Origin: Eledone cirrhosa
Taxonomy: Eukaryota
Length of the DNA stretch: 64,000 nt
Assembly (NCBI GenBank): GCA_964016885.1
Contig: OZ024741.1
Coordinates: forward strand, 218,612,001 to 218,676,000
Direction of reading: 5' to 3'
Below, one piece after another: positions 17,149-55,200 of this stretch (its first letter is position 1; each line of letters starts with the position of its first letter). The position numbers and the translations under genes were made by a program. The notes under the pieces are model-generated. The model had not been told where the DNA came from and searched no databases. It saw only the letters and a program-made list of their open reading frames with translations.

Positions 17149-17932
17149 AGCAAAAGGGATATTCAATTTGTTGGTAATTCAACAAATATATATATTTATA
17201 ACTGATTCAGAGCACTCAACAGATTTTCTGGAGTATAATATTCAATGATATTAAATAAATGGAAACTATATTTATAAAACCATATTTATTCTATTATATA
17301 TATTTCAAGGGTACCAAAACTTTGGTATGCTCTCATCAGATAAAATACAAAGTTTGTTTTATAAATATTGACATAACCAAGAAAACATACCTTAACGGTT
17401 CAAGTTGAACCAGGAAAACTTTTTTCTTGGTTACGTCAATATTTATAAAACAAACTTTGAATTTTATCTGATGAGAGTGTACTAAAGTTTTAGTACCGTC
17501 GAAATATATATAATAGAATAAATATCATCATCATCATCATCATCACCGTTTTACGTCCGTTCTTCCACGCTAGCATGGGTTAGACGGGTTGTCCTGTTGT
17601 GTGCAGTGTCTGGTCGGCTGACCACGCCTTGCTCATACAGGAACTGATCTGGCTTGATTTCTACAGCTGGATGCCCTTCCTAACACCAACCTCATTTACA
17701 GTGAGTGCTGGGTGCTTTTTCGTGGCGCCTACACGTCCACTTTACAGTGTGGGCTGGGTGCTTTTTTGCCGTGGCACCTCCACGACCACCTTGCGGTGGG
17801 GTGTGTGGGGGCATATTGTTTATATGCTTCAGCATGTACCCATGGGAGGTCGGGTACTCTGTATTACTGCGTGACGCCAGAAGTCACGGTCGTGATAAAT
17901 ATAGTTTCTATTTATTTAATATCATTGAGTAT
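17149..17932. mobile_element. Penelope-like fold-back element with a hammerhead in each arm; right arm interrupted by an RTE-tail insertion
   Basis: Arms about 17240-17381 and 17424-17525 plus 17895-17932. The + hammerhead spans 17461-17519 (ATTTTAT-CTGATGA..GAAA-TATATA-TA-ATAGAAT), with its mirror core at 17333-17339. Tail motif AGCACTCAA at 17211. Same family as 42265-42801. Confidence 0.75.
17526..17800 (-). mobile_element. RTE 3'UTR/tail-derived short element
   Basis: (CAT)n tail at 17526 followed by the reverse complement of GGTTGGTGTTAGGAAGGGCATCCAGCTGTAGAAA, which is also in the 3'UTR of the RTE at 21820-22329. Further copies at about 1310-1410, 18124-18290 (-) and 18365-18606 (+). 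Confidence 0.75.
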
Positions 17933-17944
17933 ATATATATATAT

Positions 17945-18345
17945 ATATATAATATTATTCGCAATATTAACAAATGAAAAATATTCGCATAATCAAAATA
18001 TATACTTTATTATATATATTTCAAAAGTACTGTGTTGTTTTTATTTCAGTACGTCCTTATCAGACAATCATATATTTTGGCTGATGAGGACGTACTGAAA
18101 AAACAACACAGTACCTTTGAAATCATCATCATCATCATCATTTTACGTCCGCTTTTCCCTGCTTGCAAGGGTGGGACGGGAACTGATTCTGGCTTGATTT
18201 CTACAGCTGGATGCCCTTCCTAACACCAACCTCATTTACAGTGAGTGCTGGGTGCTTTTTTGCCATGGCACCTCCACGACCACTTTGCAGTATATATTTT
18301 GATTATGTGAATATTTTTCATTTGTTAACATTTCGAATAATATTA
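17945..18345. mobile_element. Fold-back element with CTGATGA..GAAA core; right arm interrupted by an RTE-tail insertion (18124-18290)
   Basis: Arms about 17950-18068 and 18076-18123 plus 18289-18345. CTGATGA-GGACGTACT-GAAA at about 18081-18100; stems I and III are not convincing. Confidence 0.55.
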
Positions 18346-18638
18346 AAAACTCCATAAAACAAAAAAATCACCCAGCCCACACTGTAAAGTGGACGTGTAG
18401 GTACCACGGAAAAAAAAGCACCCAGCACTCACTGTAAATGCGGTTGGTGTTAGGAAGGGCATCCAGCTGTAGAAATTAAGCCAGAATCAGTTCCCGTTTG
18501 AGCAAGACAAGGTCAGCCGACCAGACACTGCCCACAACAGGACAACCCGTCTAAACCATGCTAGCGTGGAAGAACAGACATAAAACGGTGATGATGATGA
18601 TGATGATATATATATATATATATGTATATATATACACA

Positions 18639-19126
18639 CACCTCTCTAAGACAATGTCACTGGACCGAGAACTTTGGCACCATGCAGCAATACAGAAGAC
18701 CCGCCTTGCCTATGTACAATGCGAAAACTACAGTCAGTAGGCACCTCTTAACCAAATATACACTCCAACCCACCCCTACTCCATCCTCTCACTCCCACCA
18801 ACAGCACCCTTTCTCTGTAAAGTTATGTTGGTGCCACAACATCCAGTCTAAAATAATGAATTCGTGTAGGTGTCACGACAAAAAAATACACAGTCCACGC
18901 TGTAATGTGGCCGTGTAGGTAACACGGTAAAAACCTCCCAGACCACACTGTAAATGTGGTTGGTGTTAGGAAGGGCATCCAGCTGTAGAAAACCTGCTAG
19001 ACAGTCCTATACGAGCGATACACGGTCACCCAACCAATCTTGCCTCAAGTGGGACAATTCCCATCTAATCCATGCTAGCGTAGAAGATAGACGTTAAATG
19101 ATGATGATGATGATGATGATGATGAT
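18639..19126 (+). mobile_element. 5'-truncated RTE LINE 3' end (ORF end, 3'UTR and (GAT)n tail)
   Basis: Encodes HLSKTMSLDRELW..KTRL, like the end of the 19369-21819 ORF. Same 3'UTR and tail; flanked by (TA)n. Confidence 0.85.
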
Positions 19127-19355
19127 ATATATATATATATATATATATATATATATATATTATAATTGAATATAAAAGAAAAACGGACACAGATATATAC
19201 ATATATGTGTTCAAATTATTGTAAGAGACTATCTGATATATATATTTCTAACTCAATATATACCTTTGATATATATATATATATACATATATATATATAT
19301 ATATATATATATATATATATATATATATATATATATATATATATATATATATATA

Positions 19356-53813: not shown

Positions 53814-53863
53814 TTATATATATATATATATATATATATATATATATATATATATATATATAC

Positions 53864-54072
53864 ACTTTATCATGACTAAATGATGAGTCTTGTTACTCTA
53901 GAGTTTCATGTGTTCTAACAGGATCATCAGGCAAGACACATGTCTTGTTAGCTGATTCCGTGAGGGAGCAGGTGAAACTCCAGAGTAACAAGACTCATCA
54001 CTTAGCCCTAATAAAGGATATTTAAACTCTACCTCAGTATTGAGTACTCATTCTTACATCCGTCAAAATCAC
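53864..54072. mobile_element. Fold-back element with a hammerhead on the - arm; sister copy at 54310-54488
   Basis: The - strand at 53887-53937 reads TCTTGC-CTGATGA-TCCTGTT..-GAAACTC-TA-GAGT-A-ACAAGA. Tail motif TTGAGTACT at 54040. Confidence 0.7.
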
Positions 54073-54858
54073 ATATATATATATATATATATATATATAT
54101 ATATATATATATATATATATATAGCGTTTAGGATAGTCACAGTTATGCATTTTAGAAATAAAGGTGAGCCAAATTTAAAGGAAATATTCTTATAGATTTT
54201 AACCTGATAATTGAACAATTCAGGTGTAGAAATTTGCTGGGTATCTATTTGAAAAGGTTCTTAGCACTATCAGCTAGATTTTATATGTAATCCTGCCTAA
54301 CACACACACATTCATTTTATTAAGGGTAAATAGTAGGTCTTGTTACTCTAGTGTTTCCCCTGTTTATCACAGGATGATAAACAGGTGAAACTCCAGAGTA
54401 ACAAGACTCACTATTTTAGCCTTAATATAATGAATATATAAACTCTACTTCAGTATTCCATACTATTTCCTCTCAGCTATCAACTACATATATATATATA
54501 TGTCAGTGTGTGTGTGTGTGTGTTAAATTTATGGATTTGTGTGATAAACACACTAAACATGCTCGGTATTCAGGACTAATATTCTGTGTATAGAGTCAAT
54601 ATCGAACCATATACAATATTTATATGTACAATAAGTATACAGATAGCTTTACTGTGAATATATTACACTGCGATCAGATGACAGCTACCTCAGTATCTGT
54701 GTGAGAGAATTATGTACACATTTCAGCTTGTTTTGTAGCTGTGACATAATCACAGCTTAAAACATTCATACCAAGACTGTATGCATGTCTATTATACATA
54801 AATATAGTGTGTGTATATATATATATATATATACATATATATATACATATATATATAT

Positions 54859-55051
54859 ATAGGAACGAGTAGGACTCCGACGGCTGAGCTCAAGCCGTTT
54901 CGACGGCTAATTCTGGACTAAATTAGCCGTCAAAACGGCTTGAGCTCAGCCGTCGGGTCCTACTCATTCCTATTACCTACTCTACTACCCTAAGTATTGA
55001 GTACTTTGGTGCATTATGGTCCATCTGGTTCCTTACCACATTTCCTTCGTT
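54859..55051. mobile_element. Fold-back element (39231 family)
   Basis: Arms about 54859-54912 and 54921-54973; tail motif TTGAGTACT at 54997. Confidence 0.75.
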
Positions 55052-55066
55052 ATATATATATATATA

Positions 55067-55200
55067 TTGAAGAGGTAACTAGTCGAAACTGCTGAGGTCA
55101 TAGTTGATACTCTGTTTTTACTAATATACATGCTCTGCATCATACCATGTATTGAGTGCTTCTTTGATTTGTGCTCTTCCTGGTCACAGTACCACAGATT
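55067..55200 (+). mobile_element. Penelope-like 3' end truncated at the hammerhead core
   Basis: TGAAGA-GGTAACTAGTC-GAAAC-TGCTGAG-GTC, then TTGAGTGCT at 55152; (TA)n flanks. Confidence 0.5.

Follow-up and report, generated by a model that had tools for sequence, protein, structure and literature searches.

Among described systems, the closest to the repeats considered here are endonuclease-bearing (EN+) Penelope-like elements (PLEs). Hydra-clade PLEs target (TA)n and have, close to the 3' end, type I hammerheads of canonical form. The one-sided tails of PLEs, stated to be 30-40 nt long, are attributed to endonuclease-mediated resolution (Craig et al. 2021, PMC8557442). For the Poseidon element PAc, AT-rich DNA is cleaved on both strands, after which reverse transcription begins at a stem-loop, from two sites inside the RNA that lie on either side of the tail; PAc hammerhead cleavage is dispensable in vitro and no cleaved ends appear in RNA-seq, and the endonuclease of D. 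virilis Penelope required the tail on plasmids (Frangieh 2024, PMC11167929). The stretch compared here with these systems comprises 64,000 nt of Eledone cirrhosa DNA (assembly GCA_964016885.1, contig OZ024741.1, positions 218,612,001 to 218,676,000, forward strand; the window), in which a preliminary description had noticed, from the letters alone, a motif TTGAGTRCT in the unpaired tails of fold-back repeats.

This motif forms the 3' strand of a small hairpin with a bulge, which reads, in order, RCTC, inner stem, loop, a 2-nt TT or TA bulge, GAGY and an unpaired RCT, in which RCTC pairs with GAGY, the inner stem has 3-6 bp of variable sequence and the loop 3-6 nt. The (C/T)TCT(A/G) noted earlier upstream of the motif is present, but it is actually the 5' pairing strand RCTC of the hairpin; that the motif forms part of a structure with compensatory changes had been missed. 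In the window, TTGAGTRCT has nine exact matches against 1.00 expected, a count reached by 0 of 100 shuffles, and the wider TWGAGYRCT has 11 against 2.9 expected, while the enrichment is absent once one mismatch is allowed (29 found, 30.5 expected). All 14 sites of the preliminary description hold the motif, nine of them exactly, or a variant with one mismatch, at 1459(-) (TTGAGTACC), 38294(-) (TTGAGCACT) and 47429 (TCGAGTACT), or two, at 50719 (TAGAGCACT) and 53517 (TGGAGTACC). Every one of them is oriented toward a (TA)n run at the tail end; conservation and orientation thus stand as first reported, and the 30-65 nt then given to the tail end is matched by a measured distance from motif end to (TA)n of 24-62 nt. 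A (TA)4 run is found 15-65 nt 3' of all nine exact sites, as against 11% of background positions, an interval that was picked post hoc and that gives P ~2e-6 when the sites are counted as six groups. TA runs follow all 18 tails examined, as well as the tail at 58626, and TACC, a weaker second motif, occurs downstream in 9 of 11 groups (2.2 expected).

Pairwise alignment of arms and tails places the 14 listed sites in nine groups, and 18 sites in 11, as follows.

Group A: 39277(-), 47429, 53761 and 54997
Group B: 17211(-) and 42731
Group C: 1460(-) and 53518
Six single groups: the remaining six listed sites

Arm z-scores are 10-70 within groups and mostly below 4 across them (E with F, ~7), and the downstream tails do not align across groups either. 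Because neither arms nor tails can be aligned between groups, recent shared ancestry fails as an explanation, in agreement with the preliminary description, which had held the arms to be unalignable and had named full-length alignment of the tails as evidence for such ancestry. Its talk of unrelated fold-back families is borne out by the lack of cross-group alignment, but the 14 sites amount to nine groups only, and the element of 55152 (group K) is a simple 5'-truncated copy with the inverted arm absent. Five further sites with an intact or damaged hairpin (27457, 49860, 50378, 54456 and 58626(-)) bring the total to 19, the last of them found after the tests on 18 sites, and an inverted arm adjoins 17 of the 19. 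Sites and element parts are the following, in window coordinates.

1459..1467, minus: group C, the motif being present as TTGAGTACC, only ~3 nt away from the end of the arm and without partner strand
17211..17234, minus: bulged hairpin plus RCT, group B, ACTC CAGA aaa TCTG tt GAGT GCT; the inverted arm of this element resumes at 17895-17928 past an insertion
17295..17339, minus: type I hammerhead in the group B arm, from core to predicted cleavage site (custom descriptor), 76 nt before the bulge
27035..27062, minus: bulged hairpin, group D, ACTC CAGTT ctacc AACTG tt GAGT GCT, present in the minimum-free-energy (MFE) fold; arms 27062-27274, tail to ~26981
27443..27465, plus: damaged hairpin, group E, with a 1-nt bulge and one outer mismatch, not listed before; arms 27291-27438, hammerhead 27371-27400
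34022..34044, plus: bulged hairpin, group F; arms 33688-34004, alternative ACTC at 34017
38294..38315, minus: outer stem only (GCTC/GAGC), group G, inner stem broken; arms 38319-38546
39277..39303, minus: bulged hairpin, group A, ACTC TACT acacta AGTA tt GAGT ACT; arms 39309-39469, tail to ~39232
42718..42739, plus: partial hairpin, group B, outer stem and one inner pair; arms 42260-42714, hammerhead 42611-42660
47429..47437, plus: motif variant TCGAGTACT, group A, 5' partner strand apparently deleted
49840..49868, plus: bulged hairpin, group H, GCTC AGAAAA gctt TTTTCT ta GAGC TAT, found by descriptor and not listed before; arms 49394-49515 and 49712-49833
50358..50386, plus: second group H hairpin, not listed before
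50704..50727, plus: bulged hairpin, group I, GCTC TGT tctat ACG ta GAGC ACT; arms 50487-50703, hammerhead core at 50605
53517..53525, plus: motif variant TGGAGTACC, group C, convincing partner strand absent; hammerhead 53436-53474
53743..53769, plus: bulged hairpin, group A; arms 53607-53737
54026..54048, plus: bulged hairpin, group J, ACTC TAC ctca GTA tt GAGT ACT; arms 53857-54024
54442..54464, plus: group J copy with ACTC and inner stem, GAG replaced, not listed before; arms 54310-54435
54979..55005, plus: bulged hairpin, group A; arms 54859-54973
55132..55160, plus: bulged hairpin, group K, GCTC TGCAT catacc ATGTA tt GAGT GCT, in the MFE fold
58627..58650, minus: hairpin with one outer mismatch, found with covariance model R1; the tail it occupies belongs to a fold-back not listed before that is related to group I

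A custom descriptor of the hairpin (inner stem of at least 3 bp) finds 11 places in the window against 1.1 in block shuffles, and a hairpin score of at least 6.5 is reached at 11 of 18 sites (9 of the 14 listed), compared with 7 of 422 other NNGAGY sites at a score of at least 6. As plain MAFFT alignment of 41-nt windows misaligned the 5' strands, covariation was assessed in a trimmed alignment, A2, made by taking, from 10 groups, the copy best preserved in each, with group C omitted (10 of the 18 sites then known). In A2, 65 of 69 cells pair (94.2%), 14 cells are changed on both sides and four of the seven pairs are doubly changed; the covariation is 0.575 versus 0.199, with 0 of 500 shuffles reaching the score, and registers slid out of frame pair at 19-51% only. 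RNAalifold, unprompted, predicted the same seven pairs and the bulge. Group H is not independent, since it was found by the descriptor, and when it is dropped 34 of 36 variable cells still pair, as against 23.5 expected (P ~1e-4). Moreover, R1 found the untrained site 58626-58651(-) with 18.9 bits (E ~0.07) and, within groups A and B, recovered three copies on which it had not been trained, although it missed 50378; its weak extra matches at 27663, 62289, 37614 and 60059 (E>1) were judged by eye to lie outside element tails and were set aside. The hairpin is almost certainly real and selected. A splice-site reading was dropped because no GT/AG position is shared by the sites (by eye), and a second stem using RCT was set aside, its partners being variable and 3-bp matches being expected by chance. 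The 21 nt from 49917 to 49937(+), just past the first group H tail, have a hairpin-like order, ACTC CA tca TG TA GAGC, with one outer mismatch.

With regard to position, the inverted copy stops at an element-encoded TA or AT 0-8 nt before RCTC in all 15 elements examined (13 nt in group F if its second ACTC is used), and past the arm end there is a simple repeat, (TA)n in 14 of the 15 and (GT)n in 54456. The hairpin is therefore tied more tightly to the tail-less arm end than to the tail end and, given the narrow spacing on this side and an outer distance that varies between 23 and 62 nt, marks the inner tail boundary, which corrects the former emphasis on the tail end.

The carriers are built as (TA)n, inverted arm, arm with a hammerhead motif, unpaired tail and (TA)n, and the fold-back point differs among copies of one family, as within group A. 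Because this anatomy is that of an inverted 5'-truncated pseudo-long-terminal repeat (pLTR) with a one-sided tail, as described for EN+ PLEs (Craig 2021, PMC8557442; Arkhipova 2013, PMC3846280), the carriers are in all likelihood the ends of 5'-truncated elements of this type. The tail is unpaired and one-sided in all 15 elements except 18352, in which it is interrupted by an insertion, and tails are ~55-85 nt long in the window, longer than the 30-40 nt stated for PLEs; several copies lost the hairpin after they had inserted. According to a custom descriptor, the type I hammerhead is full in groups B, C, D, E and H and is represented by the core plus GAAA in I and J, by the 3' half in A and F and by a partial form in K, with none in G; the predicted cut lies 40-77 nt 5' of the motif, and 195 nt in group H. 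No hammerhead is among the 150 of 232 Rfam matches listed, all of which fall below the gathering score, are mostly microRNA (miRNA) models on palindromes or TA repeats, and were dismissed as chance. Copies with the motif break off before coding sequence is reached: no remnant of reverse transcriptase (RT) or endonuclease (EN) was found in them, and a six-frame search of the carriers for RWK, DKT, CxCX5C and EN without CCHH found none.

Many copies have short symmetric centres, which suggests snap-back of the new strand. A foldback DNA transposon or miniature inverted-repeat transposable element (MITE) is ruled out by the one-sided tail and the variable fold-back point, as that class would need terminal inverted repeats up to both ends and a fixed family length. 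Three individual elements may be described separately. At 1467-1549, the tail-bearing arm starts at the predicted hammerhead cleavage site and is joined via stem I complementarity to an inverted arm that holds the whole hammerhead, a junction that would be consistent with a self-cleaved RNA having been copied, or with a deletion afterwards. The fold-back at 17952-18361 resembles group B and has a hammerhead at 18081; another repeat interrupts its tail after ACTCCAT. In the group F arm (~33950-33960), a hammerhead-like 3' half follows a non-canonical core that is identical in both arms and is a possible ribozyme variant.

Six consensi of the Hydra clade (Craig 2021, File S7) were compared by eye, with a tally of three perfect hairpins and two near ones. 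Hydra-2_Amil (coral) and Hydra-2_Ajap (sea cucumber) have 3' ends of the form GCTC-stem-loop-stem-TT/TA-GAGC-ACT followed by ~25 nt, whereas Hydra-1_Ajap has a perfect hairpin plus ACT from base 3, 5' of its open reading frame (ORF), and a tail-less AT-rich 3' end; Hydra-1_Amil and Hydra-1_Crog (sea louse) have near-matches, and the Hydra-1_Obim consensus, as given there, lacks the hairpin and has an AT-rich end after the hammerhead. The idea of a conserved cis signal, and the pointer to Penelope pseudo-LTR tails, are thereby upheld: the carriers have PLE anatomy and the signal recurs in Hydra-clade consensi of three other phyla. The carriers probably belong to the Hydra clade, with whose described members they have canonical type I hammerheads and the hairpin with its motif at the tail or start in common, and from which the motif-bearing copies differ in having no RT/EN coding sequence. 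Their insertion into (TA)n is not diagnostic, because this target is common to Hydra, Naiad and Neptune; the Naiad clade was rejected, as it lacks the canonical hammerhead whose core is present in 7 of 11 groups here. One 12-nt match of group G to the hammerhead region of Hydra-1_Obim is weak (0.41 expected at one mismatch).

Hydra-clade specificity of the hairpin is weakly tested, the elements compared being Naiad, Chlamys and Poseidon PAc. Among 30 of the 44 GAGYRCT matches in the Craig 2021 supplement, viewed by eye and all located in Naiad or Chlamys sequence, no full hairpin was seen, and line breaks in that file may conceal further matches; the start of Naiad_Ptep has a loose version of the hairpin, and in one Naiad the terminal sequence is TTGAGTAGT, to which no partner strand corresponds. 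The supplement of Cervera 2014, with little or no tail sequence in the part searched, gave one motif string match, 5' of an Aedes hammerhead, and the 10.7 kb of text from that of Arkhipova 2013, equally poor in tails, gave none. PAc shares with the carriers a tail with two defined bounds, an RNA stem-loop, an AT-rich target and an upstream hammerhead, but its stem-loop is AC-rich, has no TTGAGYRCT and lies inside the ORF, and the portion of that paper drawn on reports no cross-family conservation or covariation (PMC11167929). Penelope of Adineta vaga is similar in its head-to-head inverted pLTRs, optional tail, palindromic junctions that were interpreted as a product of self-priming and pLTRs that suffice in cis, and different in its 31-nt tail and target-site duplications, no tail motif being noted in the sections used (Arkhipova et al. 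2013, PMC3846280). The words 'hairpin', 'stem-loop' and 'bulge' are absent from the main text of Craig 2021 (PMC8557442), and text searches of the published literature, with figures and subscription papers outside their scope, found no description of the motif or hairpin; the structured cis element is real and apparently undescribed, within a known retroelement class. Metazoan non-LTR retrozymes (PMC7229834; bioRxiv 10.64898/2026.07.22.740005) resemble the carriers in being short, non-coding repeats that have a type I hammerhead and a relationship to PLE pLTRs, but they form head-to-tail tandem arrays. This assignment was rejected, since the repeats here are dispersed fold-backs with variable truncation points; two nearby direct copies occur in group H only.

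The 3' stem-loops of long interspersed nuclear elements (UnaL2, CR1, R2) and the telomerase template boundary element are small RNA structures that sit near the start or limit of the template and are recognised by the cognate RT; they belong to other element classes and provide a functional analogy only. By analogy with the RT start sites of Poseidon (Frangieh 2024, PMC11167929), from which the proposal of an RNA binding site with two registers derives, the hairpin most likely acts as an RNA cis signal that is bound by the element's RT/endonuclease and fixes where the tail begins, with a probability of roughly 0.5. The pLTR transcript would fold the hairpin, and the protein would bind the invariant CUC/GAG stem, the bulge and RCU; the endonuclease would nick (TA)n, and complementary DNA (cDNA) would start 25-60 nt 3' of the hairpin, near TACC, giving a tail-bearing copy. 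Synthesis would abort after ~50-450 nt and the strand would fold back or join a second cDNA, with the inverted arm starting or ending at the TA/AT that the element has immediately 5' of the bound hairpin, where it would be joined to (TA)n, so that the hairpin and everything 3' of it would stay single-copy as the tail. Several findings weigh against such an RNA signal. The structure model was derived post hoc from the same sequences, with the most intact copies picked for A2; whole-tail folding energies are ordinary (z -1.6 to +0.7), and the MFE fold of the tested A, I and J tails uses other pairings. The full hairpin is missing in group C (1460, 53518), 47429 and 54456, and only partial at 38294 and 42731, and the motif is absent from the PAc stem-loop sequence. 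The tail-less arm is the longer one in 1460 (C), 27035 (D) and 54997 (A), which weighs against simple snap-back because tail-primed cDNA would not predict it, and a second cDNA or a later deletion is therefore needed. Finally, the three perfect hairpins of the Hydra consensi are all Watson-Crick, and therefore do not distinguish sense RNA, antisense RNA and single-stranded DNA (ssDNA).

Action in ssDNA, by which a GIY-YIG endonuclease would recognise the hairpin in cDNA or unwound pLTR, cut at the adjacent TA and so resolve the intermediate and leave the tail, is the chief rival, though a somewhat unlikely one. It fits the identical covariation and position data, AGYRCT is self-complementary, being its own reverse complement, and it accords with the ascription of tails to endonuclease-mediated resolution (PMC8557442), with the plasmid requirement of D. 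virilis Penelope (PMC11167929) and with bacterial GIY-YIG Ssn nucleases, which read hairpin sequence and structure in ssDNA (PMC11893778). The Ssn enzymes, however, are only distant members of the superfamily, PAc tail ends mapped to RT start sites on RNA (PMC11167929), and G-T pairs occur in 4 of 70 listed cells, though possibly through decay. It is improbable that the hairpin serves instead in the 5' untranslated region of a hammerhead-cleaved, uncapped RNA, aiding translation or stability: its place 3' of the predicted cut and, in the Hydra-1_Ajap start, upstream of the ORF would agree with this, but PAc hammerhead cleavage is unneeded in vitro and leaves no cleaved RNA-seq ends (PMC11167929). 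Closeness to the arm end would then be incidental, and the 0-8 nt coupling in 15 of 15 elements is left unexplained. The promoter role raised in the preliminary description, as a double-stranded DNA (dsDNA) site for a transcription factor of the pLTR internal promoter, is more improbable still: TA-rich sequence does lie 15-30 nt upstream of the motif and TTGAGTG resembles an NK2-class homeodomain site, but variants TAGAGCACT and TAGAGCTAT break that resemblance, and compensatory changes with a retained bulge are unexpected in dsDNA and fit this role poorly. Internal promoters are nonetheless described in PLE pLTRs (Craig 2021, PMC8557442; Arkhipova 2013, PMC3846280). Least credible of all is a hairpin with no function, left over from shared ancestry or formed as a quasi-palindrome by template switching, for the flanks cannot be aligned across groups, yet three other phyla retain CTC/GAG and the bulge, and template-switch correction should erase a bulge rather than preserve it; the carriers are, for all that, probably all homologous at depth, and the loss of the hairpin from several copies following insertion would suit this idea.

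The signal bears on RNA selection by PLE proteins and on the reason for the one-sided tail of insertions, and only one PLE has been reconstituted among the literature found. The structure, 25 nt long, has invariant bases, stems that covary and a fixed boundary distance, and so lends itself to direct mutational testing, and the hairpin provides a nucleotide-level marker for short non-coding fold-back repeats that are unplaceable by protein and may pass for MITEs or miRNA hairpins. A wider and more doubtful extension of the RNA-signal reading is that a clade-wide bulged RNA hairpin, kept in at least four animal phyla while its flanks turned over, could be the docking site of the telomerase-related PLE RT, setting both priming registers (TA on the 5' side, near TACC on the 3' side) and generating the PLE tail; if true, the retroelements closest to telomerase would possess an RNA element akin to a template boundary.

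Six other inverted-arm structures in the window (28401, 37875, 38810, 43737, 55223 and 58196) have neither the motif nor a canonical hammerhead core, and one of them served as a PLE-like control.

28401..29701, plus: control PLE-like inverted-arm element with a GIY-YIG-like C-terminal stub at 28858-29040 and a 38-nt tail without the motif

The stub differs from the Hydra EN end and has no Pfam match and no homolog at E<=0.001; the nearest Pfam-bearing Atlas cluster is GIY-YIG (15% at 0.89), which is a lead only. The 38-nt tail has a different small hairpin. In two motif-negative fold-back tails, 58162-58195(-) and 55667-55710(+), ACTC lies 6-7 nt beyond the arm end, and the inner stem of the former, 4 bp long, is perfect, but GAGY is absent there; these are possibly a related hairpin variant. 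The inverted repeats at 43737-44708 (arms of 212 bp, 100% identical) and 27733-28234 have long spacers and are possibly MITE-like.

As for the surroundings, exons of a G-protein alpha-like gene are found at 16840-17023(+) and ~24880-25040(+) (Pfam G-alpha, E 8e-15 and 4e-7), and the group B element at 17211, just 3' of the first of them, is presumably intronic. An open frame of 820 amino acids at 19357-21819(+), with RVT_1 and a PHD finger, is presumably RTE-like, and has decayed relatives at 51120-52238(-) and nearby. A 14-kb array at 2320-16656 consists of ~525 copies of a 27-nt unit, with extreme C skew and long open frames, and minisatellites at 35143-37344, 55909-56469 and 61366-61749 have units of 54, 48, 60 and 16-56 nt, with some open repetitive frames.

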